NCBI GenBank assembly: GCA_934168355.1
Contig: CAKPNI010000001.1
Coordinates: forward strand, 3,886-67,885
DNA from: an uncultured Clostridia bacterium
GTDB taxonomy: Bacteria; Bacillota; Clostridia; TANB77; CAG-508
Length of the DNA: 64,000 nucleotides
Direction: 5' to 3'
The translations under genes were made by a program, and so were the position numbers. The notes beneath the pieces were generated by a model. The model worked only from the letters and a program-made list of their open reading frames with translations, ran no database searches and was not told the origin of the DNA. Of the stretch, positions 1-44,663 are shown one piece after another. The stretch's first letter is position 1, and each line of letters starts with the position of its first letter.

Positions 1-105
1 TAAAAATAAAAGAAAAAATGCGAAAAAATAAGAAAATGAAAGAAAAATACACGACTGATAGCATAAAAGATGAGAAAAAACAGAATTAATAATAGAAAAT
101 TATTG

Positions 106-17875: not shown

Positions 17876-17892
17876 TTTTTACTGAAAAAAGG

Positions 17893-18387: not shown

Positions 18388-18519
18388 AATTATTATTTGA
18401 TATTGAAAAATTTATGTAAACTAACATAATTGCGTGAAATTTGTTGTGATGTGTCGAATTTTGTGCTATAATAAAAAAGACAATTTTGTGATTAGAAAAT
18501 TTATTGGGGGTAAATTTTG

Positions 18520-19242: not shown

Positions 19243-19247
19243 TATTT

Positions 19248-20357: not shown

Positions 20358-20366
20358 TTGGAGTGA

Positions 20367-21620: not shown

Positions 21621-21621
21621 A

Positions 21622-22800: not shown

Positions 22801-22840
22801 ATATATTAAGTTACAATATATTGTGATAGTAGGGGATGAA

Positions 22841-23866: not shown

Positions 23867-23869
23867 AAT

Positions 23870-26161: not shown

Positions 26162-26184
26162 GACAATTTTGAGAGGAAAAAAAT

Positions 26185-27300: not shown

Positions 27301-27413
27301 TACTTATCGGAAATATTTTTTTAGAAAATTTCAGCAAGTACTATATAGAAAAACATGCAGGTTCAAAGTATTTATTATTGTGTTTTTTATGAATGGATTA
27401 GGAAGGAATTTTT

Positions 27414-28370
27414 ATGAAAAAAAATATATGTATATTAATAGTTACATTTAATAGAAAAAAAAATTTAGAAAAATTATTAGATAGCTTAATTTGTCTAAAG
27501 GAACAAATTTCTGGAATATTTATTTTTGATAATAACAGCACAGATGGCACAGCTGACATATTGAAGGAAATGAATATTATAGATTATATAGTAAAAGATG
27601 AAGTTATAATGAAAAAAAATAATAGTATAGATTATTATTATTATAAAAATAACCAGAATGAAGGAGGCGCAAAGGGATTTCATGAAGGGTTAAGAATGAT
27701 AAATTCTATGAAAGAATTTGAGTATGTGTGGGTTATGGATGATGATGTTTTACCAGAACCTGATTGCTTAGAAAATTTAATGAAATATCAAAGTGAAAAT
27801 GCTATGATTACTATACCAAATAGAACAGATGAAAATTTTAACGATAAAGTTTGTATAAAAATAGATAGAAAAAATCCTTTTAAAATTTTTATGCATAAAA
27901 AAAAGATTCTTTATAATAATGAAATAAATGACAAAGATTATGTAGATGTGGTGGATATGCCGTTTGAAGGACCATTAATAAATTGCAAATTGATTGATAA
28001 AATAGGACTGCCAGATGAAACATATTTTATTCAATTTGATGATACAGACTACGCAACGAGAGCGGTTAAATTCACTAAAATAAAATTTATAAAGAATGCA
28101 ACTTTACATAAACAAATTATTCCTACAAATGATAAAAAAAGACAAATGAATTGGAAAGACTATTATGCATATAGGAATGATATTTTGTATTGTAGAAAAT
28201 ACGGCGAAAATATTTTTGTAAAATATTTAACTCCTATTTTATTATATATTAATTTAATGGGAAAAGCTATTATAAAGAGAAAAGGAAAAAACATTAAAGT
28301 TATAAGTAGAGCTTTCTATGATGGATACACTGAGAAAAAAGGAAAAACTGTAGAACCAGGAGAATTTTAA
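27414..28370 (+). CDS. Glycosyltransferase family 2
   Basis: ICILIVTFNR...FDNNSTDGT and DDD motif (WVMDDDV). Confidence 0.8.
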   Translation: MKKNICILIVTFNRKKNLEKLLDSLICLKEQISGIFIFDNNSTDGTADILKEMNIIDYIVKDEVIMKKNNSIDYYYYKNNQNEGGAKGFHEGLRMINSMKEFEYVWVMDDDVLPEPDCLENLMKYQSENAMITIPNRTDENFNDKVCIKIDRKNPFKIFMHKKKILYNNEINDKDYVDVVDMPFEGPLINCKLIDKIGLPDETYFIQFDDTDYATRAVKFTKIKFIKNATLHKQIIPTNDKKRQMNWKDYYAYRNDILYCRKYGENIFVKYLTPILLYINLMGKAIIKRKGKNIKVISRAFYDGYTEKKGKTVEPGEF

Positions 28371-28371
28371 T

Positions 28372-29769
28372 ATGTTGTTAGAAAGAAAAAGAAAAAAAGA
28401 TATAAACAAGATGACACTAGTGACAATTTTTGTATTAATATTAATAAGTTTCTTTTCAGAAAAAATGGAAAGTATAAAAGTAATATTGTATGTTGCTTGC
28501 GCACTGGTTGGTTTTTTTTCCACTAGATATACATTTGTAATAATTATGTTGGCATACACAAATGCCTTCTCACTGTTTAATGGGTTAGAAATGCAAGGAG
28601 GTTTAACGGATTTTGGACTAATTGCTGGATTGGTATGTTGTGGAATGGAAACGATAAGATATATAAAAGAAAAAAAATATAAAATTTCTAAAAAGTGTAT
28701 TGGCATTGTTGCATATGTTTTAAGTATTTTATTGCTATTATCTTTTAGTATTATGGTAGCGAAGCTAAGATATGATCAACCTATTATTAGGGGGATATAT
28801 TCATTTAGATATATATTGGTTATTATGTATGTTTTTCCTTTTATTAGATTCTTAAAGAAGGATAGACAAGAAAAAATAGTAATTATGGAATACCTGTCTA
28901 GAATCATTACAATTTCAATAATAATAATTATTATACAAGAATTAATAAAGGATAAAGTTGAAATATTAAAATTGTTAAGAACAGCAAGATTAGGTAAAGA
29001 TAGAATTTTGCTACATGCGGCTTCACCATTATATATAATGGTTTTTGCATATAACCTTTATAAAATATTAAAGGATAAAAAGGATGTATTATATGGAATA
29101 TTACCAATAATATTAATCTTAATAGCAGTTTTTATAATTTCACAGACCAGAATTTTTATGGCATGTATTTTGTCAGTTGCAATTTTAGAAGTATTGGTAT
29201 TTAGCAAAATAAAGATAGTAAATAAAATAGCTTTGGCTATAATAGGGTTGGGTATAATTGGAATTGCCTTTGAAACTAATATAGTGAATCAAATGTTAGG
29301 AAATTTATTTGAGGATGTGAATAAAGATGGAGATTCATATATAAGAAATGAAGGAAGAAGATATTATATGGCTCTTATTGACGATGAATTTTTTTTTATG
29401 GGAGGAGGAATTACTAACGAAAAATATTTAGAGTCTCCAATAAATGCTGCAAGTGAATATAATTATTATTTGGTGGATATAGGAATTTATGGCTTTTTCT
29501 TTGAGTATGGAAGTCTAGGTATAATTGCCATAGGAATTTTAACAATAGATATTTTTAGAAAAAGTTTCTATATTAAAGATAAATCAATATCAAATTTACT
29601 AAAAATGTTTTGTGCGATGATTATTACAATGTTATATACGGTTTCACCTCTTTCCTCAAGTGTATGGATTTTGTATGTTGTAATGATTGCTTTTATAGAA
29701 TCAGAAATAAATTTAAATTGTTTTGAGAAAATAGACAGGAAAGAAATAAATAGGAAACATATGTATTAA
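28372..29769 (+). CDS. wzy: Wzy-type polysaccharide polymerase / O-antigen ligase-like membrane protein
   Basis: 465 aa, about 10-12 TM helices with large periplasmic loop. Position in Wzx/Wzy-type locus. Confidence 0.6.
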   Translation: MLLERKRKKDINKMTLVTIFVLILISFFSEKMESIKVILYVACALVGFFSTRYTFVIIMLAYTNAFSLFNGLEMQGGLTDFGLIAGLVCCGMETIRYIKEKKYKISKKCIGIVAYVLSILLLLSFSIMVAKLRYDQPIIRGIYSFRYILVIMYVFPFIRFLKKDRQEKIVIMEYLSRIITISIIIIIIQELIKDKVEILKLLRTARLGKDRILLHAASPLYIMVFAYNLYKILKDKKDVLYGILPIILILIAVFIISQTRIFMACILSVAILEVLVFSKIKIVNKIALAIIGLGIIGIAFETNIVNQMLGNLFEDVNKDGDSYIRNEGRRYYMALIDDEFFFMGGGITNEKYLESPINAASEYNYYLVDIGIYGFFFEYGSLGIIAIGILTIDIFRKSFYIKDKSISNLLKMFCAMIITMLYTVSPLSSSVWILYVVMIAFIESEINLNCFEKIDRKEINRKHMY

Positions 29770-29799
29770 TATTTATAGTAAAGTAAAGGAGAGATGGAT

Positions 29800-30903
29800 A
29801 TGAAATATGATTATTTAATTGTTGGTTCAGGCCTATTTGGTTCAGTATTTGCATATGAAGCAAATAAAAAAGGAAAAAAATGTTTAGTAATAGATAAACG
29901 TTCACACATAGCTGGAAATATATACACAGAAAGTATAGAAGACATAAATGTTCATAAATATGGAGCACATATATTTCACACAAATAGTAAAGAAATTTGG
30001 AATTATATAAACCAATTTGCTGAGTTTAATAGATACACGAATTCTCCAATCGCAAGATATAAGGAAGAATTATACAATCTGCCATTTAATATGAATACAT
30101 TTAGCAAATTATGGAATGTGTATACACCTAAAGAGGCAATGAATAGAATTGAAAAAGAGAAAGAAGAAGCAGGAATAATAGAGCCTAAAAATTTAGAAGA
30201 ACAAGCTATAAGTTTAGTAGGAAGAACAATTTATGAAAAACTAGTAAAAGGATATACAGAAAAGCAATGGGGACAAAAGGCAACTGAATTACCAAGCTTT
30301 ATAATAAAAAGATTACCTGTACGATTTACATATGACAATAATTATTTTAATGATAAATATCAAGGAATTCCTATTGGAGGATATACTCAAATAGTTAATA
30401 CAATGTTAAAAGGAATAGATGTAAGATTAAATTGCGATTTTTTTGAGAATAGAGAAGAATTAGAAAAGATAGCTAATAAAATAATATTTACAGGACCAAT
30501 AGACAAATTTTACGATTATAAGTTTGGAGAACTTGAATACAGAAGCTTAAGGTTTGAAACAAAAGTTTTAAATGAATCAAATTATCAAGGAAATGCTGTG
30601 GTAAATTATACAGAATATGAAGTTCCATATACAAGAATAATAGAACATAAACATTTTGAATATGGAACACAATCTAAAACTGTAATTACAAAAGAATATC
30701 CAGATAAGTGGACAAAAGAAAAAGAACCATATTATCCAGTAAATAATGAAAAAAATAATTCTTTATACGGAAAATATAAAGAGTATTCAAATAAAGATAA
30801 AAATATTGTATTTGGCGGAAGACTAGGACAATATAAATATTACGATATGGATAAAGTTATAGAGCAAGCACTTGAATGTGTAAAAGGAGAATTAAATGGC
30901 TAA
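29800..30903 (+). CDS. glf: UDP-galactopyranose mutase
   Basis: N-terminal FAD motif YDYLIVGSGLFGSVFA and conserved Glf core. Confidence 0.9.
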   Translation: MKYDYLIVGSGLFGSVFAYEANKKGKKCLVIDKRSHIAGNIYTESIEDINVHKYGAHIFHTNSKEIWNYINQFAEFNRYTNSPIARYKEELYNLPFNMNTFSKLWNVYTPKEAMNRIEKEKEEAGIIEPKNLEEQAISLVGRTIYEKLVKGYTEKQWGQKATELPSFIIKRLPVRFTYDNNYFNDKYQGIPIGGYTQIVNTMLKGIDVRLNCDFFENREELEKIANKIIFTGPIDKFYDYKFGELEYRSLRFETKVLNESNYQGNAVVNYTEYEVPYTRIIEHKHFEYGTQSKTVITKEYPDKWTKEKEPYYPVNNEKNNSLYGKYKEYSNKDKNIVFGGRLGQYKYYDMDKVIEQALECVKGELNG

Positions 30904-32353
30904 GAAAAGCATAGCAAAAAACTATATATATAATTTAGCGTATCAGATATTAATAATATTATTACCAATAATAACAACTCCATATTTATCAAGAGTATTA
31001 GGTGCTGAAAATATAGGAATATATAGTTATACACTATCAATTGTAACGTATTTTATACTATTTGGATCTTTAGGCATATCAATGTATGCACAAAGAGAAA
31101 TAGCATATGTTCAAGAGAATAAGCAAAAAAGAAGTAAAATATTTTTGGAAGTGTTAATATTAAGGTTTATTACATTATCGATTTCTATGATAATATATTA
31201 TTTTGTATATGTAAATGGAACGCAATATCAGATGTATTACAGAATACTATTAATCGAAATTATAGCAACAGGTTTGGATATATCGTGGTATTTTCAAGGA
31301 ATGGAAGATTTCAGAAAAACAGTATTTAGAAATACATTGGTGAAACTTGTAAGTATCGCTTTGATTTTTTTATTAGTTAAAAAACAAGAAGATTTAGCAA
31401 AATATTTTATAATTTATGTTATATCTAATTTTATAGGAAATTTATCCTTGTGGTTATATATACCTAGATCTTTAGACAGAATAAGAGTTAAAGAACTACA
31501 GCCATTAAAACATTTTAAGGCAACAATTGGTTTATTTATACCACAAATAGCCATACAGATATATACATTACTAGATAAAGTTATGATTGGAGTAATAATT
31601 AATGATAAATCTGAAGTGGGCTATTATGACCAAGCACAAAAAATTATAAAAATATTATTAACAATTGTAACATCCTTAGGAACGGTAATGATACCAAGAA
31701 TGGCAAACACATTTGCAAATGGGGATATGAAACAAATAAAAGAATATATGAAGAAATCTTTTAGATTTGTATATATTATTTCAATACCAATGATATTTGG
31801 AATTATTGCAGTTTCAGATAAATTTGTACCTGTATTTTTTGGGGATGGATATGAAAAAGTTTCGATCATTATGAAAGTTATAAGCCCAATATTATTAATA
31901 ATAGGGTTAAGCAATGTAATAGGTTCGCAATATTTATTACCAACCAAAAGACAAAAAGAATTTACAATATCAGTTACGTGTGGTGCAATTACTAACTTTA
32001 TAGTCAATTCTATAGTTATAAGGAAGCTGGGAGCAGTTGGGGCTTCTGTAGGTACCGTAATAGCGGAAAGCATTGTTACAGCAATACAGATTTATTTTGT
32101 AAGAAAAGACATAAATTTAAAAGAATGTATAAATATATCAAAAAAATATATTATAGTTGGATTGACTATGTTTATAGTAGTTACATTTATAGGAATATTT
32201 ATAAAAAATAATTTTGTTTCTATAGTTGTACAAGGATTGGTTGGTACATGTATATATATAATTGGTTTATACATTACAAAAGATGAATTTTTTATAAATT
32301 TATTACAAAATGTAAAAAATAAAATAAAAAATAAAAATGTTACAGAAATTTAA
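30896..32353 (+). CDS. wzx: Oligosaccharide flippase (Wzx, MOP superfamily)
   Basis: 485 aa, 12-14 TM helices, polysaccharide biosynthesis protein family. Confidence 0.8.
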   Translation: MAKKSIAKNYIYNLAYQILIILLPIITTPYLSRVLGAENIGIYSYTLSIVTYFILFGSLGISMYAQREIAYVQENKQKRSKIFLEVLILRFITLSISMIIYYFVYVNGTQYQMYYRILLIEIIATGLDISWYFQGMEDFRKTVFRNTLVKLVSIALIFLLVKKQEDLAKYFIIYVISNFIGNLSLWLYIPRSLDRIRVKELQPLKHFKATIGLFIPQIAIQIYTLLDKVMIGVIINDKSEVGYYDQAQKIIKILLTIVTSLGTVMIPRMANTFANGDMKQIKEYMKKSFRFVYIISIPMIFGIIAVSDKFVPVFFGDGYEKVSIIMKVISPILLIIGLSNVIGSQYLLPTKRQKEFTISVTCGAITNFIVNSIVIRKLGAVGASVGTVIAESIVTAIQIYFVRKDINLKECINISKKYIIVGLTMFIVVTFIGIFIKNNFVSIVVQGLVGTCIYIIGLYITKDEFFINLLQNVKNKIKNKNVTEI

Positions 32354-32438: not shown

Positions 32439-35400
32439 ATGAATAAAAAAGTCGAAAGATATGAGAAAAAGGCAAAAAAATTAATAAATACAATAAAACT
32501 GATTGGTATTTGCACTTTTGTGCTTGGGATAGTTATATCAATTTCGCAGTATATAGTAAACAATTTGGATAGCAAATTTGAAAAAAACGAAGGAAGCGAA
32601 ACAATTAAACAAGAAGAATTTAATGAATCAGGAACAGGAACGACGTATTATATTTCTAGAGATGGAACCTCGAGTGATGGAACTAATATTAATGATCCAA
32701 TGTCTTTAAGTGAAGCAAATAAAAAAAATTTTGAAGGTAATGATAGAGTGCTATTTAAGAGCGGAGATATATTTTATGGAATAATAAGTTTTTCTGTGAA
32801 TAAAAGTGACAACTCATTATTTTATATTGGAAGCTATGGTGATGGTGAAAAACCTATTATAAGTGGGGCTAATATATTAAAAAATAGAGATTGTTGGGAA
32901 TATAAAGATGGATTATACCAAATAGACTTATCGAAGAATGGAAATTTTTATGGTATAGGAAATTTTGGGAATATAACATATAATATTGGTTTTTTAGAGA
33001 GTGAAAATGGAACGATATATGGCGCTAGAAAAAAAAGCAAAGACTTATTAATAGATGAGTATGACTTTTATTGTGAAGATAGTAAATTGTATATAAAATG
33101 TAATCAGAATCCAACAGATAAATTGGGACAAATTAAATTGGCTAGTAGAATAGATTTGGTTAGATTATCATCTAATACTTTAATAGAAAATATAGATGTT
33201 CAATGTACGGGTGCACACGGAATTGTAAAAAAGAATAGTGAGGTGATTTCTAATGTCATTGTTAGAAACTGTATAATACAAAATATAGGCGGAAGTGTAC
33301 AAATAGCAAGTTCTTTTACAAGATATGGAAATGGATTAGAGTTTTGGGATAATGCAGAAAATACTCTTGTAGAAAAATGTATTTTTAAAAATATATATGA
33401 TGCGGGATATACTATGCAGGGAAATGGAAATAATAGTGGATTTGAAAATAATGTGTGTAGAGATAATATCTTTATAAACTGTACATATACATACGAAACA
33501 TTCTGTAGAGATCAACAGTATACTTACAAGGGGATTTTTTTAAGGTTTCAAAAATTCTTAAATAATCTTTCGATAAACCAAGGAAGAGGATGGGGATATG
33601 ACGTAAGAGTTGATAAAGAAAAATCGGGTGAAATGGTGTTATGGGCAATTCCTGTTAACGATACGGACATAGAAATAAGTAATAATATATTTTATAACTC
33701 AAGAAGGATAAAATACAAGACTACATATACAAAAATCACAGATAGTGAGTATAAAAAATGTATATTATCCGATAATAATAAGTTATATTTGAGCAATGAT
33801 ACAAAATTACTAAATGATGACGGAGATTATTACAATAGAGAATGCTTTAACAAATTGAAATTTGAAGTAAATTCGGATTGGAATATTTTGAATGAAGCAG
33901 AAATGGATAATATTGAAAACAAAAATGTTTTTAAATCAAATAACTATGAATTTATAAAAAAATACTATGAACTATTCGAAGATGCAGAATATAATAAAAA
34001 GATAGAATTAGGAGATACAACCGCAAATATATATACAAAAAATGAACAAAAAATAGCATTAGTATATAACAATTCTAAAAAAAGTTACATACCTTACACA
34101 AATTACAAAGCAACTGACATATATGGCAACGAAATAGAAAACAATGGAACATTAGAAATATCTCAGGAGCCAATATTAATATATAATTTAAAAGAGGACG
34201 AATTATATAATAATATTTACAAAAATATAGAAGAAAAAAGTGACTATTTTATTGAAAAATATAAAACAAAATTGGATTCTAAAAATTTAGAGGAAATTAG
34301 AAAAAAGACAGAACAAATAAAAGAAGAATCAAAGAAAATACTAGAACTAAAAGAACCTGTAACAAATCAATATACTATTAATTTAATAGAAAAAATTTAT
34401 CAAAATGGCGAAAGTATAACAAATGTATATAAAGAAAACAATAATTTGATAAATAATGAAGAAGTTGTACAAATGCTTTCTGATATATTAGATATTAGTG
34501 TTCAAGCTGAGAAGTTATTAAGTACATCTAAAGGCGAAGTAATTAATTATAATAAAAAAACAGATATTGAAAAAAATATAAAAGAATTTGAGAAGATAGG
34601 ACAATTTTATAATGAAACCGAAGCAAGTTCAATTTATAAATTAGAAAATGAAGGAAAGGAATATTATAAAAAAATTACACCAGATGTTTCTAATGAAAAT
34701 GATTTTAATAATATAAAAGCATATTATGAAACATTATGGGCATATCAATTAATGAAACAATATGATATCGAATACATCAAAAACAACCCAGTAACAATCG
34801 ACTACTCAGAAACAAACCCAACAAACCAAAACGTAACAGCAACACTAAGAACAAATGCACAAATAACAATAAACAACAACTCAAACAGCAAAGCCTACAC
34901 CTTCACACAAAACGGAACCTTCACCTTCGACTACACAATAAAAGGACAAACATTCCAACAAACAGCAACAGTAAACAACATAGACAAAACAGCACCAACA
35001 ATAGAAGGAGTAGAAAACAATAGACTATACTTATCAGAAGTAACACCAAAGGCAAGTGATACAAATCTAAAAGAAGTACTATTATACAAAGACAACAATC
35101 AAGTGCAAAACTATCAACAAAATACCAAAATCACAGAAGATGGGCATTACAAACTAGTTGCCAAAGATTCAGCAGAAAATCAAACATCAGTAGAATTTGA
35201 CATCTCAAGAAATCCTGCAATAATAGATTACTCGGAAGTAAATCTAACAAATCAAGATGTAGTAGCAACAGTAAATTCAAATTTTGATGTAAACGTAAAA
35301 AATAATTCAAATCAAAAATCGTATACATTTAAGGAAAATGGAGAATTTACATTTGAATTAAACATAAAAGGTGCGGAATTACAGCTAACAGCAAAGGTTG

Positions 35401-36032
35401 ACAATATAGATAAAACACCTCCAACTATTACAGATGTGGAAGATGGAAAACAATATATAGAAAAAGTAACACCTAAAATATCTGATGATAACCTAAATGA
35501 GGTTAAACTATATTTCGATTCAGAAGAAGTACAAGGATATACACTAAATTCAGAAATAACAGGAGAAGGATTCTACAAATTAGTTGCGAAAGACTTAGCT
35601 GGAAACGAAACATCAGTTGAATTTACAATAATTGAAAATCCAGATGAGAAATATCAAATAAAAGATGGAAATATATTAAATATTAAAAACAATACTAATC
35701 AAGATACCTTCAGAAAGAAATTAAAAATGTCTGGAGAATATAGTATTTACAGAAATAATACTTTAATTTCAGATAATGATAAAATTGCAACAGGAGATAA
35801 ATTAAGAAAATCTACTGGTGAGGAGTATACATTAATTGTTAGTGGTGACATTAATAATGATGGTGATGTAAATATTAAAGATATAGTTATGCTTAGAAAG
35901 TATTTACTTGAAAGAAATAACTTAGATGAAAATAGCTTACTTGCTGCCGATTGTAATTTAGATGGTAAAGATATTAGTATTAAGGATTTAATTAGAATGA
36001 GGCTTATAGCCTTAGAAAGAGATGTAAACTAG
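32439..36032 (+). CDS. Large surface protein: N-terminal signal anchor, right-handed beta-helix (pectate-lyase-like) domain, two tandem about 140-aa Ig-like repeats, C-terminal type-I dockerin
   Basis: PbH1-like repeats (NCIIQNIGGS). Tandem repeats at about 34785-35210 and 35211-35640. Dockerin duplicated Ca-binding segments DINNDGDVNIKD and DCNLDGKDISIKD. Confidence 0.75.
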   Translation: MNKKVERYEKKAKKLINTIKLIGICTFVLGIVISISQYIVNNLDSKFEKNEGSETIKQEEFNESGTGTTYYISRDGTSSDGTNINDPMSLSEANKKNFEGNDRVLFKSGDIFYGIISFSVNKSDNSLFYIGSYGDGEKPIISGANILKNRDCWEYKDGLYQIDLSKNGNFYGIGNFGNITYNIGFLESENGTIYGARKKSKDLLIDEYDFYCEDSKLYIKCNQNPTDKLGQIKLASRIDLVRLSSNTLIENIDVQCTGAHGIVKKNSEVISNVIVRNCIIQNIGGSVQIASSFTRYGNGLEFWDNAENTLVEKCIFKNIYDAGYTMQGNGNNSGFENNVCRDNIFINCTYTYETFCRDQQYTYKGIFLRFQKFLNNLSINQGRGWGYDVRVDKEKSGEMVLWAIPVNDTDIEISNNIFYNSRRIKYKTTYTKITDSEYKKCILSDNNKLYLSNDTKLLNDDGDYYNRECFNKLKFEVNSDWNILNEAEMDNIENKNVFKSNNYEFIKKYYELFEDAEYNKKIELGDTTANIYTKNEQKIALVYNNSKKSYIPYTNYKATDIYGNEIENNGTLEISQEPILIYNLKEDELYNNIYKNIEEKSDYFIEKYKTKLDSKNLEEIRKKTEQIKEESKKILELKEPVTNQYTINLIEKIYQNGESITNVYKENNNLINNEEVVQMLSDILDISVQAEKLLSTSKGEVINYNKKTDIEKNIKEFEKIGQFYNETEASSIYKLENEGKEYYKKITPDVSNENDFNNIKAYYETLWAYQLMKQYDIEYIKNNPVTIDYSETNPTNQNVTATLRTNAQITINNNSNSKAYTFTQNGTFTFDYTIKGQTFQQTATVNNIDKTAPTIEGVENNRLYLSEVTPKASDTNLKEVLLYKDNNQVQNYQQNTKITEDGHYKLVAKDSAENQTSVEFDISRNPAIIDYSEVNLTNQDVVATVNSNFDVNVKNNSNQKSYTFKENGEFTFELNIKGAELQLTAKVDNIDKTPPTITDVEDGKQYIEKVTPKISDDNLNEVKLYFDSEEVQGYTLNSEITGEGFYKLVAKDLAGNETSVEFTIIENPDEKYQIKDGNILNIKNNTNQDTFRKKLKMSGEYSIYRNNTLISDNDKIATGDKLRKSTGEEYTLIVSGDINNDGDVNIKDIVMLRKYLLERNNLDENSLLAADCNLDGKDISIKDLIRMRLIALERDVN

Positions 36033-36053
36033 AAGAGTTTGCATCTTTTCATA

Positions 36054-36084
36054 GCAGAGTAGATTTAAGCTCTGCTTTTATATT
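36054..36084 (+). terminator. Rho-independent terminator
   Basis: AGCAGAG-loop-CTCTGCT followed by TTTATATT. Confidence 0.55.
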
Positions 36085-36349
36085 ATCTAAAATAATATAA
36101 ATAGTAAATATCAAATAATCATTAAATTAAAAATAAATTATTAATATTATAAAAAATGAATATAATGATATTATAAGTTTTTATAAATATGATATAGGTG
36201 CGTATAAAATAATTTGTTAAATATTTTTTATAGCATAAAGTACGATACAAAAAAGCCAAATAAATAAAAAGTTTTTGTAGCACAATACAAAAACTTTACT
36301 TTTGCACTGAAATGATGTATAATTTAAATAGAAAAAGGAGGTACTTTTT

Positions 36350-37555
36350 ATGATAAGTAGAGATGAATACTTAAATGTATTAAAGAGATTTAAAGATAAA
36401 GCATTGATAAAAGTTATAACAGGAATAAGAAGATGTGGGAAATCTACTATACTTGAAATGTTTCAAGATTATTTAAAAGAAAATGGAGTAGAAGAAGGTC
36501 AAATAATAAGTATCAATTTAGAAGATTTAGAGTATAACTTTATAACAGATTATATGACTTTATATAAATATATCAATGATAAATTAAAAGAAAAGAAAAA
36601 ATATTATATATTTATAGATGAAGTTCAAAAAATAAATGAATTCCAAAAAGCAGTGGACAGCTTATATATAAAGAAAAATGTTGATTTGTATATAACAGGC
36701 TCAAATGCGAATCTATTATCAAGTGAACTTGCAACACTTTTATCTGGAAGATATATAGAAGTTAAAATGTTACCATTATCTTTTAAAGAATATAAAGAAG
36801 CCTATAAAGATTTAAATAATGAAGATCTATATCAAAAATATATTTCATTAGGTTCTCTTCCATATATTACATCACTAGATACTGAAGATGATGTGAGTAT
36901 GTATTTAAGTAGTGTATATAATGATATAATAATAAAAGATGTTATGACAAGAAAGAAAATACAAGATGAAACTATGCTCAGAAATGTTGCCAATTTTGCT
37001 ATGGATAATATAGGAAGTCTTGTATCTACAAATAATATAGCAAATACTATGATAAGTGATGGTAAAGATATAAATGTAAGAACAGTTGAAAGATATCTAG
37101 AAGGATTCACAGAAAGTTTCTTTTTATATAAAGCTTCAAGATATGATATAAAAGGAAAAGAATATTTAAAGACTCAAGGAAAATATTATGTTTCTGATTT
37201 AGGCTTTAGGTACTTTATGCTAGGAAGAAAAATAGGAGATTTTGGTCATATATTAGAAAATGTGGTTTATTTTGAACTTTTAAGAAGAGGTTATGATGTA
37301 TATATAGGAAAAATAGATGAATATGAAGTGGACTTTGTAGCAATAAATAATGAAGGAAGATTATATGTCCAAGTTACTGATACTTTAAAAGGAATTGATG
37401 AGAATGACACAAAAATATTAGATAGAGAATTACGATCTTTAAGGAAAATAAATGATAATTATGAAAAAATAATATTAACTTCAGATAAAATACCTGTTTC
37501 TAATGAAGATGGAATAAAAATAAAAAATGTTTTAGAATGGTTGCTTGATAAATAA
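36350..37555 (+). CDS. AAA-family ATPase with DUF4143
   Basis: Walker A GIRRCGKST and DUF4143-type C-terminal region. Confidence 0.7.
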   Translation: MISRDEYLNVLKRFKDKALIKVITGIRRCGKSTILEMFQDYLKENGVEEGQIISINLEDLEYNFITDYMTLYKYINDKLKEKKKYYIFIDEVQKINEFQKAVDSLYIKKNVDLYITGSNANLLSSELATLLSGRYIEVKMLPLSFKEYKEAYKDLNNEDLYQKYISLGSLPYITSLDTEDDVSMYLSSVYNDIIIKDVMTRKKIQDETMLRNVANFAMDNIGSLVSTNNIANTMISDGKDINVRTVERYLEGFTESFFLYKASRYDIKGKEYLKTQGKYYVSDLGFRYFMLGRKIGDFGHILENVVYFELLRRGYDVYIGKIDEYEVDFVAINNEGRLYVQVTDTLKGIDENDTKILDRELRSLRKINDNYEKIILTSDKIPVSNEDGIKIKNVLEWLLDK

Positions 37556-37708
37556 GAATATAAAGCAAGAAAATAGTAGAAATAAAAAAATGTAATAAAG
37601 TTGTAACAAAACTGTAACAAAAAAGAAAAATAAATAATCTTGTCATAACCCTCAAACAATGTTAAAATAAAAACAGGTATATAAAAAGAGAGGGAGGAAA
37701 ACAAAAGA

Positions 37709-38488
37709 ATGAAAAAAATAGTAACAAGTTTTATTATATTAATAATAGCAATACTTATGTACCAAACAGTATATGCCGCAGAAAATAGTACAGGAGCAAG
37801 TGTAGTATTTAACTTTTCTGGAGATAGCAAAGTAACACAAGGAACCAAAACAGTAACATATACAATATCATTAGGAAACTTTGTAGGAATTCCAGAAAAT
37901 GCAATGATGGGATATGAAGCAGTTCTTGAGTATGATAGTAATGTGTTTAATTCAGCTACAATAGAAGGATTAAATGATTGGACAGCACAATACACAGAAT
38001 CAACAAAAAGATTGATAGGAGAAACAAGAACAAAAGGAGAATCAAATAAGGAAATTGCAAAAATAACATTAACTTTAAAAGATGATGCTCCAGTAGGAAA
38101 CACAACAGTAAAATTAAATAATGTTTTACTAACTGCAAATGGCAACCAAGAATTCTCGTACACAAAAGAAGCAACATTGCAAATAGAAGCAAAAGCTGAA
38201 GAACCAAAAAATGATGACAAAAATAATACTACAGAAAACACAAACACAACCCAAACTGCTACACAAAATGAAAGTAAAAATCAAACAAATAGCAATATAC
38301 AAAATCCAGTACCAAACAATACTTCAAATGAATATAAAAGCATTAAAAAAAATGGTACAAGCAATAATTCAAAAGCAGCATCAGTTTTACCTAAGACAGG
38401 AACAGGAAGAATTGCACTAGCTGTATTTATGATTTTAATTATAGGAATTGGTTGTTTAATAAGATACAAATCAATTCAAACAAAATAA
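37709..38488 (+). CDS. Cell-wall-anchored (LPKTG) protein with cohesin-like N-terminal domain and Asn/Thr-rich linker
   Basis: Signal peptide (cleavage after VYA). Cohesin-like beta-sandwich sequence features. C-terminal LPKTGTG plus TM plus basic tail. Confidence 0.6.
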   Translation: MKKIVTSFIILIIAILMYQTVYAAENSTGASVVFNFSGDSKVTQGTKTVTYTISLGNFVGIPENAMMGYEAVLEYDSNVFNSATIEGLNDWTAQYTESTKRLIGETRTKGESNKEIAKITLTLKDDAPVGNTTVKLNNVLLTANGNQEFSYTKEATLQIEAKAEEPKNDDKNNTTENTNTTQTATQNESKNQTNSNIQNPVPNNTSNEYKSIKKNGTSNNSKAASVLPKTGTGRIALAVFMILIIGIGCLIRYKSIQTK

Positions 38489-38580: not shown

Positions 38581-39099
38581 ATGAAAAAACTATTAACAAT
38601 TTCAATTTTAGCAATTGCTTTAGTATTAATGGCCGTAACAGGAGTTAATGCAACAACAAACGACAATTTAGCTGAAACACTATACAATATAGGAGCTAAA
38701 TATGGTATGACAAAAGCTGATAAAGTAAAAATTGAAAGATACTTAGCTGATTATCCAGTTACAGAATCAGAAGCTAATGCAATAGTTGCAAAAGCTAATG
38801 AAGCTGCAAAAGTAATGGATAATGCTGGAGTAACAGACTTCAATAAATTATCAAAAGAACAAAAAGCTGAAATAAAATCAATTGCTAATCAAGCTGCAAG
38901 TATTGTTGGTGTTACTTTAACATACAAATCTGGTTCTGTTGAAATATACAAAAACGGAAAATTAATTGAAACAGTTACTAATAACAATGGAAAACTTGCT
39001 TACACAGGAAATAATAATATGGTTTTAGTTGTTTCTTCAATAGCAGTTATAGCCCTAGCTTCAGTAGCAGTTGCTAGAAAGAAATTAGCTAATGCATAA
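38581..39099 (+). CDS. Secreted protein with non-canonical LAYTG sorting signal
   Basis: Signal peptide. C-terminal LAYTG, then hydrophobic segment, then RKK. Overlaps start of the adjacent sortase gene. Confidence 0.6.
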   Translation: MKKLLTISILAIALVLMAVTGVNATTNDNLAETLYNIGAKYGMTKADKVKIERYLADYPVTESEANAIVAKANEAAKVMDNAGVTDFNKLSKEQKAEIKSIANQAASIVGVTLTYKSGSVEIYKNGKLIETVTNNNGKLAYTGNNNMVLVVSSIAVIALASVAVARKKLANA

Positions 39100-39712
39100 T
39101 TTAGCAAGAAATGCAATAAAAGCAACTATTATAGAATTAATAGTTGCTTTATTTATTACTGCACTTTTGATAGGTATAGGATATATTCTATTTGGGGCTA
39201 AAATAGAAGAAAATATGTCATTAATAAGCAAAGTATCAATTGGAGTCAGTAACGGAAATGAAGTTGTTGAAACAGTGGTAGATGATAATGATAAATTAAA
39301 AAATTATCCAGAATATGGAACAAAATACGCAAATATAAAAATACCAAAAATAGATGTAGATCTTCCTGTATATTACGGTGATAGTTTAGATGTTCTAAAA
39401 AAAGGAGTAGGACATTCAAGTGGAAGCTATTTTCCAGGAGAAGGTGGCTCAATAATATATATGGGGCATAACTCAAAAAAAATGTTTAGAAGATTTTCAG
39501 AATTACAAAAAGGGAATGAGATAGAGGTTACCACTAATTATGGAGATTTTAAATACAAAATATATGATATGCAATTAATAAAAGAAACTGATGTGGATAA
39601 ACTTCCAATTCAAAAAGACAAAGAAATTTTAATGGTATATACGTGTTATCCATTTAACAATATAGGATATGCAACACAAAGATATGTAGTATATGCGGAA
39701 TTAGAAAATTAG
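39092..39712 (+). CDS. Sortase (transpeptidase)
   Basis: N-terminal TM, catalytic His (YMGHNS), TLxTC-like MVYTCYP, conserved Arg (QRYVVYAEL). Confidence 0.75.
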   Translation: MHNLARNAIKATIIELIVALFITALLIGIGYILFGAKIEENMSLISKVSIGVSNGNEVVETVVDDNDKLKNYPEYGTKYANIKIPKIDVDLPVYYGDSLDVLKKGVGHSSGSYFPGEGGSIIYMGHNSKKMFRRFSELQKGNEIEVTTNYGDFKYKIYDMQLIKETDVDKLPIQKDKEILMVYTCYPFNNIGYATQRYVVYAELEN

Positions 39713-39724
39713 GAGGAAAGAATA

Positions 39725-40579
39725 GTGGCAAAGAAAATAATACAATATATAGTGGCTACAATATTAGCATTGGCTATACTTGGATTAGTTGTAATAAATA
39801 TACTTTCAACTTCTATCTTAAATAAGGGGTATATAATATCTAAATTACAAACTCAACAGTATTATGATAAAATATATGAAGAAACTGAATCAAATTTTGA
39901 AAATTATATACATCAATCAGGTCTTGATGAAGATGTATTAAAAGACATAGTATCAAAAGAAAAAATAGAAAAAGATACCAAAATAATTTTAAACAATATA
40001 TATAATGGTATGGATGAAAAGATAGATACAAAAGAAATTAAAGAAAAATTAAATGAAAATATAAATAATTCTTTGAATGGAAAAATTTCTAGTTCAGAAC
40101 AAAAATCTATAGACACTTTTGTTGATACAATTTGTAAAGAATATGAAACAACAATTTTACATACCAATTATGAAAAAAAGATACATGAAACAATAGAAAA
40201 AATAAATAAATATATCGATTTATCCAAAAAAGCAATGATGATAATTATAGGTGTTTCAGTTATATTATTAATTTTATTAACAATAAGAAGAATTTATAGA
40301 ATTATTTCAAAAATTGGTGTGGCATTTATAATTGATGGTTTGATTTTGGTATTAGCAAAAAAATATATTGGTTCCAACATAAAAGTAGATACAATAAAGT
40401 TGCTAAATAACGGGATATCTGATGTATTGCAAAGTATTTTAAATGAAATGATAGGAAAAGTATTAAAAACTGGTAGTATATTATTGGCTTTGGGAATTAC
40501 AATGATAATAATTTATGGAATAATAAAAAGCATTCGTAAAGCAAAAAGAGAAAAAGACCAATATACACCAGAAAATTAA
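39725..40579 (+). CDS. Hypothetical membrane protein
   Basis: TM helices at both ends. GTG start after AGGAGGA. Confidence 0.45.
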   Translation: MAKKIIQYIVATILALAILGLVVINILSTSILNKGYIISKLQTQQYYDKIYEETESNFENYIHQSGLDEDVLKDIVSKEKIEKDTKIILNNIYNGMDEKIDTKEIKEKLNENINNSLNGKISSSEQKSIDTFVDTICKEYETTILHTNYEKKIHETIEKINKYIDLSKKAMMIIIGVSVILLILLTIRRIYRIISKIGVAFIIDGLILVLAKKYIGSNIKVDTIKLLNNGISDVLQSILNEMIGKVLKTGSILLALGITMIIIYGIIKSIRKAKREKDQYTPEN

Positions 40580-40595: not shown

Positions 40596-41309
40596 ATGGA
40601 AGAATTAGATTTAAAAGAATTATTAAGCTTATTTTGGAGCAAAATTTTTCAAATAATAGTAATTGTACTTATAGTAACAGGAGTAGGAGTAATTTATACA
40701 TATGGCTTTACCACTCCTAAATATAGTTCATCAACAACACTTGTACTTACAGGTTCAGAGCCATCAACAAGCTCAGATGCCACAAATTCAATAACAACAA
40801 CAGATATAACTTTAAACTCAAAATTAGTATCAACATATAGTGAACTTGTAAAAAGTAGTAAAGTTTTAAGACAGGTTATATCAAATTTAGGAATAGATGT
40901 AAATGAAGATGAATTAAGAAAAAATGTAACAGTAAAATCTGTTGAAGATACAGAAGTAATAAAAATTACTGTAACAAATGCAAATGCTGCATATTCAGCA
41001 AAAATAGCAAATGAAATAGCCAAAATATTTTCAGGAATGGTTTCAGATATCTATAATATAAATAATATATATATAGTAGATGAGGCAGAAGTATCAAATA
41101 CGCCATCAAATATACATCATAGTAAGGACATAATGATATTTGGATTTTTAGGACTAGTAATATCTATAATGTATGTTTTAATTGCTAATATGTTAGATAC
41201 AACAGTAAAAACACCAGAAGATGTTGAAAAAGGAGTAGGTTTACCAGTACTTGTAACTATTCCATATATAGAAAACTTTGGAAACGAAAAAGGAGGTAAA
41301 AGAAAATGA
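40596..41309 (+). CDS. Capsular polysaccharide chain-length determinant (Wzz/CpsC-like)
   Basis: Two TM helices flanking an extracellular domain. Directly upstream of the tyrosine kinase. Confidence 0.75.
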   Translation: MEELDLKELLSLFWSKIFQIIVIVLIVTGVGVIYTYGFTTPKYSSSTTLVLTGSEPSTSSDATNSITTTDITLNSKLVSTYSELVKSSKVLRQVISNLGIDVNEDELRKNVTVKSVEDTEVIKITVTNANAAYSAKIANEIAKIFSGMVSDIYNINNIYIVDEAEVSNTPSNIHHSKDIMIFGFLGLVISIMYVLIANMLDTTVKTPEDVEKGVGLPVLVTIPYIENFGNEKGGKRK

Positions 41310-42286
41310 AAAAAGAAGTAATAGCACATAAAAATCCTAAATCTCCTATTTCAGAAGTTTTTAGAACACTAAGAACAAATATACAATTTATGGATGTAAA
41401 CAAAAAAATGAAAGTATTGACAGTTACATCAACTTTCCCAGGAGAGGGAAAAAGTTGGGTTGCATCAAACTTAGCAGTTACATTTGCCCAAGCGGGAAAA
41501 AAGGTTGTTTTAATAGATGCAGACATGAGAAAAGGAAGACAGTATGCAATATTTGGACTTTCTCCAAAACCAGGACTTTCAAACTTTTTATCACAGGTTG
41601 AAATGGATAATAATGGTAGATTGTCAGAAAATGTAGCAGACTATATTCAACCAACAGAAGTTGAAAATTTATTTGTCATTACAGCAGGAAATGTACCACC
41701 AAATCCATCAGAGCTTTTAGTATCAACTCAAATGATAGGTTTATTGGATGCATTAAGAAATTCTTGTGATATGATAATAATAGATGGAACACCAAGCGAG
41801 CTAGTTACAGATGCTGTTATCTTATCGAGAATATCTGATTCTACAGTAATAGTAACTGCACACAAGATTACAAAAAAAGATGCATTAGAAAGAGTAGTAA
41901 AAAATATACAAAATGTTGGTGGAAAAATTGCTGGAGTTATAATAAACAAAGTTCCGATATCAGCAAAACGCTATGGTGAAAAGTATTACTATTATGGAGA
42001 AGATAGAATTTTATCTGGAAAATCGAAAAAAGTTGCTAATATATCAAAAGCACAATCTACAAGAGAAAATTTTTCATTTGGAAATAATCAAGTAGATAAA
42101 AATCCATATCAAGATGATATGGATGAAATGGAAAGTAAAGACTTTTTAAGAGAAGATTCAGAGCCTTTATTTATTCGTAAAAACGAAGAAATAGTAAATC
42201 AAAATGAAGAAGTATCATTAGACAAAACAAATGATATATTAAAACAAATTAACGAATATTTAGATAACGAAAAAAAGAAACTATAA
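41306..42286 (+). CDS. Polysaccharide biosynthesis tyrosine autokinase (CpsD/CapB-like)
   Basis: Walker A TSTFPGEGKSW, C-terminal tyrosine cluster YGEKYYYYGED. Confidence 0.85.
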   Translation: MKKEVIAHKNPKSPISEVFRTLRTNIQFMDVNKKMKVLTVTSTFPGEGKSWVASNLAVTFAQAGKKVVLIDADMRKGRQYAIFGLSPKPGLSNFLSQVEMDNNGRLSENVADYIQPTEVENLFVITAGNVPPNPSELLVSTQMIGLLDALRNSCDMIIIDGTPSELVTDAVILSRISDSTVIVTAHKITKKDALERVVKNIQNVGGKIAGVIINKVPISAKRYGEKYYYYGEDRILSGKSKKVANISKAQSTRENFSFGNNQVDKNPYQDDMDEMESKDFLREDSEPLFIRKNEEIVNQNEEVSLDKTNDILKQINEYLDNEKKKL

Positions 42287-42305
42287 AAGCTTAAAAAGGA
42301 GAATA

Positions 42306-43085
42306 ATGAAAATGATTGATTTTCATTCACATGTTCTTCCAAATGTTGATGATGGTTCAAAAAGCGTTGAGGAAACGTTTAAATTACTAGAAGAGGCAAA
42401 AGAGGCAGGATTCGATGGAGTAATATCAACCTCTCATTATATGGAAGAATATTATGAAGTAAATGTAGCTGAAAGAAAAGTATGGATAAATGCACTATCA
42501 GAAAATTTATATCAGAAAAATATAGATTTAAAGCTATATTTAGGTAACGAAATTTATATATCCAAAAATATCATTGATTTTTTAGAAACTGGGAAAGCAA
42601 CAAGTATTAATAATTCCAATTACGTACTTTTTGAATTCCCTATGAATTCTAAACCAATGGATATGTATGATATTATATATGATATGTTAGAATATAAATT
42701 GGTACCAGTCTTAGCTCATCCTGAGAGATATTCGTTTGTACAAAAAGAGCCTAATTTGGTATACGACTTAATTCAAAAAGGGGTTCTTATGCAATCAAAT
42801 TATGGTAGTATCTTAGGAATGTATGGCGAAAAAGCGCAAATTATTGTTAGGAAATTATTAGAAAATAATATGGTACATTTTTTAGGTAGTGATGTACATA
42901 GGGCTAATTCTATTTATTCTAAAATTCAAAGTAGTTTAGGAGAGATTGAAGCGATAGTGGGAGAGGAGAAACTAAAAGAGATTAGTTCGGTCAATCCAAA
43001 ATTGGTTGTGGATAACAAGAGAATTGATATTGATGAGCCAAGGGAAATTAAGTTATCTTTAAAGGAAAAGATGAAGCTCTTATAA
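42306..43085 (+). CDS. Tyrosine-protein phosphatase CpsB/CapC (PHP family)
   Basis: MIDFHSHVLPNVDDGS metal-binding motif. Confidence 0.85.
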   Translation: MKMIDFHSHVLPNVDDGSKSVEETFKLLEEAKEAGFDGVISTSHYMEEYYEVNVAERKVWINALSENLYQKNIDLKLYLGNEIYISKNIIDFLETGKATSINNSNYVLFEFPMNSKPMDMYDIIYDMLEYKLVPVLAHPERYSFVQKEPNLVYDLIQKGVLMQSNYGSILGMYGEKAQIIVRKLLENNMVHFLGSDVHRANSIYSKIQSSLGEIEAIVGEEKLKEISSVNPKLVVDNKRIDIDEPREIKLSLKEKMKLL

Positions 43086-43604: not shown

Positions 43605-44663
43605 TTAAAGCAAATATAGAAAATATCTACATGAGCTATATTCGTATCCAACAAGTTTTCCAAAATCCTTTTGATAATAGTCCCAAATGTAGACACCAGA
43701 AGACTCAACCACATAGACAACACCAGATTCTTCCAAAAAACTAATCAATGTTTGGTATGGCTTGTAAGCCATAATCATACGTTTCGATGCTCTGCACTCT
43801 AAATATTTCATTTTACCAGAGTCAATTTCATTTTCTGTTTTATCAATTATTGCCTTTCTCTGTTCTGGATTGAGTTCAACTTTTAGTTTATCATTGAAAG
43901 AACTGTGATAATCACTTTCAATATCACATTGTCCAGATCCAGTAAGCATTGGTACAGAATTTTGATTATCAAAGTAGAAATTCCAGATGTTTTTTAGCCC
44001 ATCAAGTAATCTTAGATATAAATTTGAACATCCGTTATTATACTTTTCAATTGAATTCTTACTCATAATGGCAAACTGCATATCACCACATCTGTCATCA
44101 CCAAAATGGAAAGGCCAGAAGCCAATGATGATGTCCTTGCATATTCTAATATTGTCTTCGTAAACATCAGAATAAACACGATAAAAAGCACCATCTTTGG
44201 TTGTCTGTTTTTTAAAACGAATTTTATATAAATGGTAGTTTAATGCTGTTTGATAGGTACTTCCAAAAATTGCATATAAGATACCAAGGTCATTAATCAT
44301 TTCTACCTCTGACCGAGTATCCTCATAGTAATTTTTGTCATCTTCAAAATGAACATTCCATTTAAAATTTTGGTTTGGATTCCATTCATTTTCATTATGA
44401 TATGATTGACTACTATAGCTATATGCTTTTTTATCCCCAAATGAATCCTCAAAGTCAAAACTAGTTGTACTATAATCTTCTGTATGTTGCTTAAGAATCT
44501 CATGAGTTTCTTCATAAACTTTGAGCTTTTTTTCAACTTTAGCTAAAAGCCGTTTAGCCGTTTCTTGCTCTGGACCAAAATCAAGTTTAACACGTAATTG
44601 AAGTGCTTCGACCCTATGCTTTAACTTGGTGTATTCTTCTGGATTAAACTGTTGTTTTTTCAT
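43605..44663 (-). CDS. Hypothetical protein (352 aa) in GC-richer segment
   Basis: Long ORF. Local base composition clearly less AT-rich than surroundings. Confidence 0.5.
   Translation of the reverse strand: MKKQQFNPEEYTKLKHRVEALQLRVKLDFGPEQETAKRLLAKVEKKLKVYEETHEILKQHTEDYSTTSFDFEDSFGDKKAYSYSSQSYHNENEWNPNQNFKWNVHFEDDKNYYEDTRSEVEMINDLGILYAIFGSTYQTALNYHLYKIRFKKQTTKDGAFYRVYSDVYEDNIRICKDIIIGFWPFHFGDDRCGDMQFAIMSKNSIEKYNNGCSNLYLRLLDGLKNIWNFYFDNQNSVPMLTGSGQCDIESDYHSSFNDKLKVELNPEQRKAIIDKTENEIDSGKMKYLECRASKRMIMAYKPYQTLISFLEESGVVYVVESSGVYIWDYYQKDFGKLVGYEYSSCRYFLYLL

Follow-up and report, generated by a model that had tools for sequence, protein, structure and literature searches.

Cohesin-dockerin pairs are known from extracellular degradative machines, namely cellulosomes, amylosomes and, recently, mucinolysomes, and Clostridium perfringens bears both modules on secreted enzymes, which are thereby joined to each other. 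Degradative enzymes encoded in exopolysaccharide (EPS) operons are known as well, mainly from Gram-negative bacteria. The locus described here joins these two ideas in Wzx/Wzy capsule loci of uncultured gut Clostridia of low GC (guanine plus cytosine) content. It lies in a stretch of 64,000 nucleotides of contig CAKPNI010000001.1 (assembly GCA_934168355.1) from an uncultured Clostridia bacterium, which we call the window, and it encodes a modular putative glycanase of 1197 amino acids (aa) that ends in a dockerin and a wall protein of 259 aa with a single cohesin and an LPXTG-type anchor. Both ingredients are well known and their domains are already named in the databases (NCBI lists the two proteins as 'dockerin type I repeat-containing protein' and 'cohesin domain-containing protein'), so that what is new is the combination, and full-text literature searches did not find a cohesin-dockerin pair described in a capsule locus.

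The closest known counterparts of the wall protein are ScaE of Ruminococcus flavefaciens, an LPXTG-anchored single-cohesin protein that binds XDoc dyads (PMC5301203), and cSca5 of the Limousia mucinolysomes, an LPxTG-anchored single-cohesin scaffoldin (PMC12997984). Like the pair in the window, these systems combine a small secreted single-cohesin LPXTG protein with a partner that carries a C-terminal X-module-dockerin. However, ScaE and cSca5 belong to scaffoldin gene clusters and hold entire multi-enzyme complexes that act on external substrates, whereas the window has one enzyme and one cohesin in a capsule biosynthesis locus, and its enzyme has a predicted membrane anchor of its own. The C. 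perfringens glycoside hydrolases are alike in being a non-cellulolytic case from low-GC Clostridia, and one of them provides the best structural match of the window cohesin (2vo8), but the window cohesin is borne by a dedicated wall-anchored carrier and encoded inside a capsule locus. On the side of the enzyme, glycosyl hydrolase and lyase genes recur inside EPS clusters, and PslG is found mainly at the inner membrane by the Psl machinery (PMC9075953). PslG, AlgL and PelA resemble our case in that a glycan-cleaving enzyme is encoded within the cluster of its own polymer, and one of the four head types described below is related to PslG. These three are located in the periplasm or at the inner membrane of Gram-negative bacteria and have neither stalk nor docking module, whereas the window enzyme has a stalk of ~700 residues, a probable cohesin-dockerin link to peptidoglycan and a modular head, which is a beta-helix and not a barrel.

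We favour, with a probability of about 60%, the explanation that the 1197-aa protein is a capsule-type-matched glycanase acting on the cell's own polysaccharide, in the manner of PslG or AlgL, and that a cohesin-dockerin pair, one to one, ties it to the wall. The modules on which this explanation is built (dockerin, cohesin, anchor and head) are almost certainly real. The conserved linkage of the two genes makes it likely that the dockerin binds the cohesin, and the position in capsule loci, the exchange of heads and the PslG relative make the cell's own polymer the probable substrate, with somewhat less assurance. We infer the following sequence of steps, which takes in an uncleaved N-terminal helix, docking of the two proteins and the own capsule as substrate. 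The N-terminal signal-anchor would sit in the membrane and bring the beta-helix head close to the Wzx/Wzy/Wzz machinery, and from the head a helical bundle, four immunoglobulin (Ig)-like domains and an X module would lead to the C-terminal dockerin. The 259-aa protein would be secreted, cut at its LPKTG motif by a dedicated sortase encoded downstream or by a housekeeping one, and attached covalently to peptidoglycan, where it would show its single cohesin on a flexible linker of ~65 residues. Ca2+-dependent binding between dockerin and cohesin would hold the far end of the enzyme at the wall, one enzyme to one socket, and the enzyme, be it a hydrolase or a lyase, would most likely trim, release or clear the polymer of its own locus. 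If this is true, a cohesin-dockerin system would have a non-degradative role in the assembly of the cell envelope, there would be a Gram-positive model for capsule clusters that carry their own glycanase, and the heads would make up a natural set of capsule-type-specific depolymerases on a common, engineerable display chassis.

Much of the evidence for this explanation comes from related loci. A scan of one genome per GTDB species gave 13 loci encoding relatives of the head, all in assemblies of uncultured organisms (12 of them labelled as metagenome-assembled genomes, MAGs), with human, chicken, sheep and rabbit sources for some, and further loci came from look-ups of single homologues; they were annotated by BLAST and purpose-built hidden Markov models (HMMs) and are cited here by L numbers. 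Near-identical proteins also occur in MAGs labelled 'Clostridia bacterium'. A dockerin protein with the chassis of the window enzyme is encoded in 18 distinct loci, and exactly one cohesin-LPXTG gene was found within 10 kb of it in 14 of these; L021, in which a large insert reaches the end of the sequence, was left out of the linkage count, which leaves 17 assessable loci. When the search was started from six diverged cohesin proteins, an upstream dockerin protein was present in 6/6, and the pair is still located in capsule loci when the cohesin proteins have diverged down to 26-28% identity (BLASTP). Furthermore, all 18 loci, which come from gut metagenomes and MAGs, are Wzx-type and capsule-like, with the pair upstream of Wzz/CpsD/CpsB wherever the fetched sequence reaches that far. 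The original prediction had placed the enzyme after Wzx and before Wzz/CpsD/CpsB, and both reading frames indeed lie there, at the coordinates given and on the + strand (Table 1). It had also proposed a function coupled to the polysaccharide made by the locus, a proposal that gains support from the recurrence of the pair in capsule loci and from the exchange of heads between capsule types.

These counts also bear on the possibility that the pair is a minimal cellulosome-like foraging device, in which an enzyme displayed on the wall, as in amylosomes and mucinolysomes, would degrade a dietary or host glycan (pectin-like material, mucin or the polymer of another bacterium) and the place in a capsule locus would be incidental. 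The cohesin-dockerin systems of gut Firmicutes are otherwise known for substrate degradation (PMC12997984, PMC5301203), and the folds of the heads are of the carbohydrate-active enzyme (CAZyme) type. However, the presence of the gene in a capsule-like locus in every case, the very diverged ones included, argues against an incidental location, and so does the composition of the loci: each related locus, like the 64-kb window itself, had one dockerin and one cohesin, and a cellulosome-like multi-enzyme set was not seen in these loci. A probable membrane signal-anchor in place of a cleavable signal peptide, the swapping of heads between close relatives as with capsule-type-specific genes, and the similarity of one head type to PslG, a hydrolase of self-EPS, are further points against foraging, and we consider it unlikely.

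The head exchange is the most telling of the results and supports a glycanase matched to the capsule type. The chassis of stalk, X module and dockerin is conserved across the related loci, and four types of head are found on it: a beta-helix, a PslG-like TIM barrel, a DUF4832/GH42-like head and a tail-spike-like head. The heads of L003, L005 and L024 are unrelated to the beta-helix, and their best solved relative is PslG (E = 6.5e-5, nearly end to end); they keep the NEP and TE[YW]G motifs and match Pfam GH5 with 28.1 bits against a cut-off of 23.5. From residue ~490-510 on, these three proteins are 40-47% identical to the window protein over ~700 residues, the N-terminal anchor is common to L003, L005 and the window protein (46-59% identity), and the dockerins of L003 and L024 are 81-84% identical to that of the window. 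The head of L025 scores over threshold with both DUF4832 (53.9 bits) and GH42 (26.2 bits), and for the L026 head a tail-spike protein of a phage is the best solved relative (E = 1.1e-4). The organism that carries L025 is closely related to that of the window (BLASTP identities of 88% for the sortase, 81% for Wzz, 80% for CpsB and 78% for the dockerin), yet the L025 head is a different one, which is why we say that the head behaves like the capsule-type-specific genes. In addition, L003 and L005 have, after their PslG-like barrel, a segment that aligns with the small beta module of the window protein (516-585) and that was itself aligned to the C-terminal region of PslG; the window protein thus resembles a beta-helix head placed on a chassis of the L003 type. 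As chassis and socket are kept while the head is exchanged with the capsule type, each head is presumably specific for the polymer of its own locus. A search for heads with the stalk-plus-dockerin chassis was of no help: most of what it brought up were short fragments and Ig-repeat proteins of no relation.

The original prediction of a pectate-lyase-type fold for the head of the window enzyme agrees with what we found, as the AlphaFold2 (AF2) model (mean predicted local distance difference test score, pLDDT, 81.9), its Foldseek neighbours and the PDB matches all indicate a right-handed beta-helix. The structural neighbours include the XylC beta-xylosidase (3vst), a Klebsiella K1 capsule-specific lyase (7w1c) and the phage K64-1 S2-4 depolymerase (9k4a). 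A profile built from 15 diverse homologues of the head matched, among PDB sequences, the lacto-N-biosidase 6kqs (E = 7e-12, over the N-terminal cap only), the alginate lyases 7o84/7o7a (E = 0.0026) and the exo-poly-alpha-D-galacturonosidase 3jur (E = 0.074), and distant homologues of the head reach 21-25 bits with Pfam Beta_helix. The head shares with these depolymerases and lyases (7w1c, 9k4a) and CAZymes (6kqs, 7o84/7o7a, 3jur, 3vst) the right-handed parallel beta-helix and the N-terminal cap motif, and it differs from them in that any likeness in sequence is either limited to the cap (6kqs) or marginal. Three lines of evidence, the AF2/Foldseek comparison, the PDB profile and the Beta_helix scores, agree that the head is a predicted right-handed beta-helix carbohydrate-active enzyme. 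We do not give it a CAZy family, because its similarity to solved enzymes is cap-only or marginal and no catalytic residues were matched; GH136 in particular was rejected, as the significant 6kqs match covers the N-terminal cap only. The beta-helix head is the best-conserved module of the protein (mean pairwise identity 0.61), and among its diverged homologues D321 never varies, with E353 and D209 conserved to at least 90%.

More distant homologues of the head also occur without the dockerin chassis and with other modules, in L011 (8954-11695, with DUF285 repeats), L014, L015, L017, L018 and L019. L017 and L019 have two tandem copies of the head homologue, and L019 belongs to a Muribaculaceae (Bacteroidota) MAG, which means that the head family reaches past the Clostridia.

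The second partner, the 259-aa protein, has a signal peptide that ends in VYA|A, a cohesin domain, a low-complexity linker and a sorting signal. The original prediction had made its case depend on the N-terminal domain having a cohesin or related fold, and it had described this domain as a cohesin-like beta-sandwich. Both points stand: AF2 models residues ~30-160 with pLDDT >90, the best 12 matches of this model in a Foldseek search of the PDB are all cohesin modules, and the best of them is 2vo8, the cohesin of a C. perfringens GH33 enzyme (E = 3.9e-8, TM score 0.80 on the target, root-mean-square deviation 2.6 A). After the cohesins come a CLIPPER adhesin domain (rank 13) and AgI/II C-domains. 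In the protein family, 14 of the 24 members match Pfam Cohesin at E < 0.01 (best E = 1.6e-11), and the family profile matches only cohesins in the PDB, although weakly (E = 0.57 and 0.76). A whole-protein phmmer search of the PDB gave a designed repeat protein and PTP-delta, matched through the low-complexity linker or the anchor, and these matches were judged spurious. The linker has pLDDT <50 over residues 166-231 and varies in length and sequence across the family. The predicted signal peptide and LPKTG anchor are likewise confirmed, as TIGR01167 scores 16.2 bits against a cut-off of 15.9, with the tail RYKSIQTK; in the family P228 and G231 never vary, and L227, T230 and Y253 hardly do.

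The dockerin of the enzyme is genuine, with a Pfam Dockerin_1 (PF00404) score of 35.2 bits over aa 1136-1177 against a curated cut-off of 22.9, in an alignment that covers profile positions 2-43 of 57 only. Moreover, the PDB sequence matches of the 1197-aa protein are dockerins only, AF2 models three helices between aa 1146 and 1195, and the homologues likewise carry PF00404; NCBIfam gave nothing for this protein but a meaningless 17-bit match. The description of the dockerin as a textbook type I module went slightly too far: loop 1 (DINNDGDVNIKD) has the canonical 12 residues, and loop 2 (DCNLDGKDISIKD) has 13 residues, one more than the canonical number, and keeps D1171/N1173/D1175/D1183. 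Some homologues have a canonical 12-residue loop 2, and the Asp/Asn residues at loop positions 1/3/5/12 are invariant or nearly so in the 28 homologues. Among close relatives the dockerin is conserved at least as well as the core proteins of the locus, and in the comparison with L027 the identities are 92% for the dockerin, 90% for Wzz, 61% for the X module and 81% for the cohesin.

Module borders in the rest of the enzyme were taken from an alignment of the 28 homologues and the AF2 model. The small beta module is confined to the forms of ~1150-1200 aa, and the helical bundle is the least conserved structured module (mean pairwise identity 0.31). The four-domain Ig-like stalk was recognised from the gap pattern of the alignment, all-beta AF2 segments and many Foldseek matches to Ig chains, and it matches itself in a BLAST comparison (46% over 218 aa); homologues of 969 aa have one copy of the two-domain Ig unit where the window protein has two. 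At the N-terminus there is, in the 28 homologues throughout, a long K/R-rich n-region followed by one hydrophobic helix of ~20 residues, AF2 models residues 2-48 as a continuous helix, and an A-x-A site is present in 0/28 homologues. The cohesin protein and the 172-aa protein encoded after it have, unlike the enzyme, short signal peptides that end in VYA|A and VNA|T. The N-terminal helix is therefore a probable uncleaved signal-anchor, as far as the sequence can tell; a cleavable signal peptide was rejected on the same grounds (no A-x-A site), which is not a proof. Thus, of the original proposal that a cohesin-dockerin tether holds the enzyme on the wall, the modules stand, but the cohesin is probably not the sole hold, because the enzyme would have its own anchor in the membrane.

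Two such anchors on one protein would also allow a more specific arrangement, in which the membrane helix and the dockerin-cohesin link would together span the wall and keep the head at the Wzy/Wzz export site, where it would release the chain or set its length. The stalk, whose length depends on whether it has one Ig-pair unit or two and on the presence of the extra beta module, would then be tuned to the envelope. We regard this trans-wall strut as a rather unlikely idea. If it were true, it would be a Gram-positive counterpart of the envelope-spanning capsule machinery, made of cellulosome parts and with a plug-in head that is swapped when the capsule type switches.

Several observations weigh against a tethered glycanase for the own capsule and have to be set beside the evidence above. 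Concerning the enzyme, the head of the window protein itself scores below every Pfam model, and no catalytic residues could be assigned to it from the PDB and Pfam comparisons. N282 of the head falls opposite D411 of 6kqs, which we take to be a catalytic residue of that lacto-N-biosidase, in a local alignment that is not significant. Furthermore, the head is fairly conserved (mean 61% pairwise) across loci whose sets of glycosyltransferases differ, which fits poorly with strict specificity for a repeat unit; recognition of a shared feature fits better than recognition of the full repeat unit. Concerning the pair, the window protein scores 23.8 bits with Pfam Cohesin (PF00963), 0.3 bits under the cut-off of 24.1, and L007, L008 and L023 (3 of the 17 assessable loci) have the dockerin protein and no cohesin within 10 kb. 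The cohesin domain evolves far faster than the dockerin (27% and 59% identity to L001, respectively), and distance-matrix covariation over 14 pairs is not above background (rho = 0.34, with a partial rho of ~0 given Wzz).

The points concerning the pair are shared by another explanation, in which the modules are real and the two proteins are no partners. The cohesin protein would be an independent surface protein or adhesin, or would bind a dockerin encoded elsewhere, and the dockerin of the enzyme would serve for Ca2+-dependent stabilisation, for self-association or for binding some other wall component. To the covariation no higher than background, the three loci without a nearby cohesin and the fast divergence of the cohesin, this explanation can add the terminator-like site, the inserted gene and the separate promoter-like sites between the two genes, as well as the occurrence of cohesin-like folds in non-docking surface proteins such as the CLIPPER adhesin and the AgI/II C-domains. 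What speaks against it is the one-of-each linkage in 14/17 assessable loci, and in all cases when seen from the cohesin side, together with the strong conservation of the dockerin, which implies a constrained partner surface. Besides, the greatest divergence of the dockerin coincides with the absence of the cohesin: the dockerins of L007 (9971-12835) and L008 (10004-12907) are by far the most diverged, with 39-44 bits in the family HMM against 87-104 for most others, which fits with loss of the partner. Both loci retain the dockerin protein and the sortase trio described below. We therefore hold independence of the two proteins to be improbable, if the most serious of the alternatives.

In a set of 10 pairs the cohesin-dockerin rho was 0.41, against 0.72 for dockerin and Wzz, and dockerin types pair with cohesin types in L016/L020, L001/L013 and the window/L003. 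As shared ancestry explains this pairing of types equally well, mirror-tree covariation was dropped as evidence in either direction.

Table 1. Positions of the features of the capsule locus, the cohesin-dockerin pair and neighbouring genes in the window.
Feature	Position	Strand	Basis
Modular dockerin-bearing putative glycanase gene, 1197 aa	32439-36032	+	Open reading frame; 28-homologue alignment; AF2
Basic N-terminus and single hydrophobic helix (aa ~14-41), probable uncleaved signal-anchor	32478-32561	+	Hydropathy, sequence
Polar linker of the 1197-aa protein	aa ~46-66		
Catalytic head, predicted right-handed beta-helix (aa ~67-480)	32637-33878	+	AF2, Foldseek, PDB profile search
Small beta module (aa ~516-585)	33984-34193	+	Alignment; AF2 strands 517-582
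Variable helical bundle (aa ~586-782)	34194-34784	+	AF2 helices 586-782
Ig-like stalk, four domains as two tandem copies of a two-domain unit (aa ~783-1066)	34785-35636	+	
X-like module directly N-terminal of the dockerin (aa ~1067-1134), conserved alpha/beta	35637-35840	+	Alignment, AF2
Type I dockerin (aa ~1135-1197)	35841-36029	+	Pfam, PDB matches, Ca-loop residues, AF2
Terminator-like hairpin 3' of the dockerin gene	36053-36076	+	Consensus scan, pattern match only
AAA_14/DUF4143 ATPase gene, candidate defence gene	36350-37555	+	Pfam; PADLOC PDC-S01 E = 8.4e-154
Cohesin-LPXTG wall protein gene, 259 aa	37709-38488	+	Open reading frame; family of 24 sequences
Cohesin domain (aa ~30-160)	37796-38188	+	AF2, Foldseek, Pfam
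N/T/K/S-rich low-complexity linker, ~65 residues (aa ~161-225), predicted disordered	38189-38383	+	
LPKTG sorting motif, transmembrane helix and R-Y-K-S-I-x-x-K tail	38387-38485	+	TIGR01167
172-aa secreted protein with sorting-type signal, transmembrane helix and ARKK	38581-39099	+	Alignment from 7 loci
Dedicated sortase, class-D-like	39092-39712	+	Pfam, NCBIfam
284-aa membrane protein with transmembrane-like segments, always accompanies the sortase	39725-40579	+	
Wzx/Wzy-type capsule or exopolysaccharide locus	16871-43085	+	
Variable biosynthetic part of the capsule locus	16871-32353	+	Pfam
Wzy-like membrane protein, candidate	28372-29769	+	Multi-transmembrane sequence and position only
Wzx	30896-32353	+	
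Wzz (CpsC-type), CpsD tyrosine kinase and CpsB phosphatase, conserved end of the capsule locus	40596-43085	+	Pfam, NCBIfam
RhuM	7058-8095		
DUF2779	9422-10906		
WYL-domain protein	10914-11915		
AAA ATPase, weak IetA-like PADLOC matches	12036-13634		

Four more genes lie within or just past the span of the original prediction, and the first of them separates the two partners. This AAA_14/DUF4143 gene is an insert and no part of the tether. In fact, the gap between the dockerin and cohesin genes is an insertion hot spot for varying cargo of the defence or mobile type: PDC-S01 (AAA_14/DUF4143) in the window and L009, AAA_21 with RloB in L001 and L021, Fic with DUF4143 in L005, RelA_SpoT in L022, a toxin/HTH-peptidase pair in L007 and PDDEXK_2 genes in L027. 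The gap has no insert in L003, L012, L016, L020, L024 and L026.

The repeated insertion of defence genes beside the enzyme gene, and the presence of phage capsule depolymerases and a phage tail-spike protein among the structural neighbours of the heads, could be taken as signs that the enzyme is an outward weapon or a shield, which would strip the capsule or biofilm matrix of competitors or would remodel the own capsule against capsule-dependent phages. We think that this is very unlikely: directly after its transmembrane anchor the head would be membrane-proximal and badly placed for reaching other cells, its type changes with the type of the cell's own locus, and the defence genes are variable cargo and no conserved partners.

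The other three genes, which follow the cohesin gene, encode a small secreted protein of 172 aa, a sortase and a membrane protein. The 172-aa protein has a signal peptide ending in VNA|T and a conserved, non-canonical L-[AV]-Y-T-G-N motif (LAYTG at nt 38995-39009), and its gene is always directly upstream of the sortase gene. The sortase matches Pfam Sortase with 102 bits, and its catalytic His (IYMGHNS), Cys (VYTCYP) and Arg (TQRYVV) can be recognised in the sequence. NCBIfam models of class D score best (NF058671, 127.4 against a cut-off of 140; NF033746, 120.1 against 165), and because both scores are under the cut-offs we call the enzyme class-D-like and not a member of the class. A Pfam search with the 284-aa membrane protein gave no significant family. 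The trio is a separable module: about half of the loci have it, and L009, L012, L016, L020, L024 and L026 do not; the pair is still adjacent without it in L009, L012, L016, L020 and L026. As an obligatory part of the tether the trio was rejected, given the pair without the trio in 6 loci and the trio without a cohesin in L007 and L008.

Three side observations concern this module. In L005 (10955-11824) the mature unit of the small protein is duplicated head to tail (289 aa), with the junction ...GKLVYTG|SKDLADNLY..., which in its sequence looks like the expected product of a head-to-tail ligation by a sortase. A perfect palindrome with a 13-bp stem (39119-39150) is located just inside the start of the sortase gene, by its overlap with the end of the small-protein gene, and was flagged as terminator-like on both strands by the scan. 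Finally, an LCP (LytR-CpsA-Psr) gene occupies the place of the trio directly before Wzz in L024 (10893-11915) and L009 (19623-20714), and among the window reading frames scanned no LCP gene was seen; some loci lack both, so that LCP and trio are not strictly alternative.

The surroundings of the pair are those of chromosomal DNA of low GC content (~25-32% in 2-kb windows), in which a long gene cluster on one strand is flanked by ClpC, PriA, Fmt, Ffh and a class II tRNA synthetase. According to Pfam, the biosynthetic part of the capsule locus encodes an epimerase, VanZ, an initiating sugar transferase, UDP-galactopyranose mutase and Wzx, together with five glycosyltransferases of group 1 (GT4-type) and one of family 2. 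Directly past the locus there is a reading frame of 352 aa (43605-44663, -), for which a Pfam search gave no match. Upstream of the locus, a group of genes between 7058 and 13634 resembles defence or mobile functions (RhuM, DUF2779, a WYL-domain protein and an AAA ATPase, Table 1). Within the biosynthetic part, a radical-SAM/SPASM protein (21622-22800) is encoded together with a 763-aa fusion of a polysaccharide pyruvyl transferase with a ferredoxin/FrhB-like part (23870-26161). Pyruvyl-transferase and FrhB-like genes are seen again in most of the related loci, and this recurrence suggests that their polymers have a sugar in common, pyruvylated or modified in another way.

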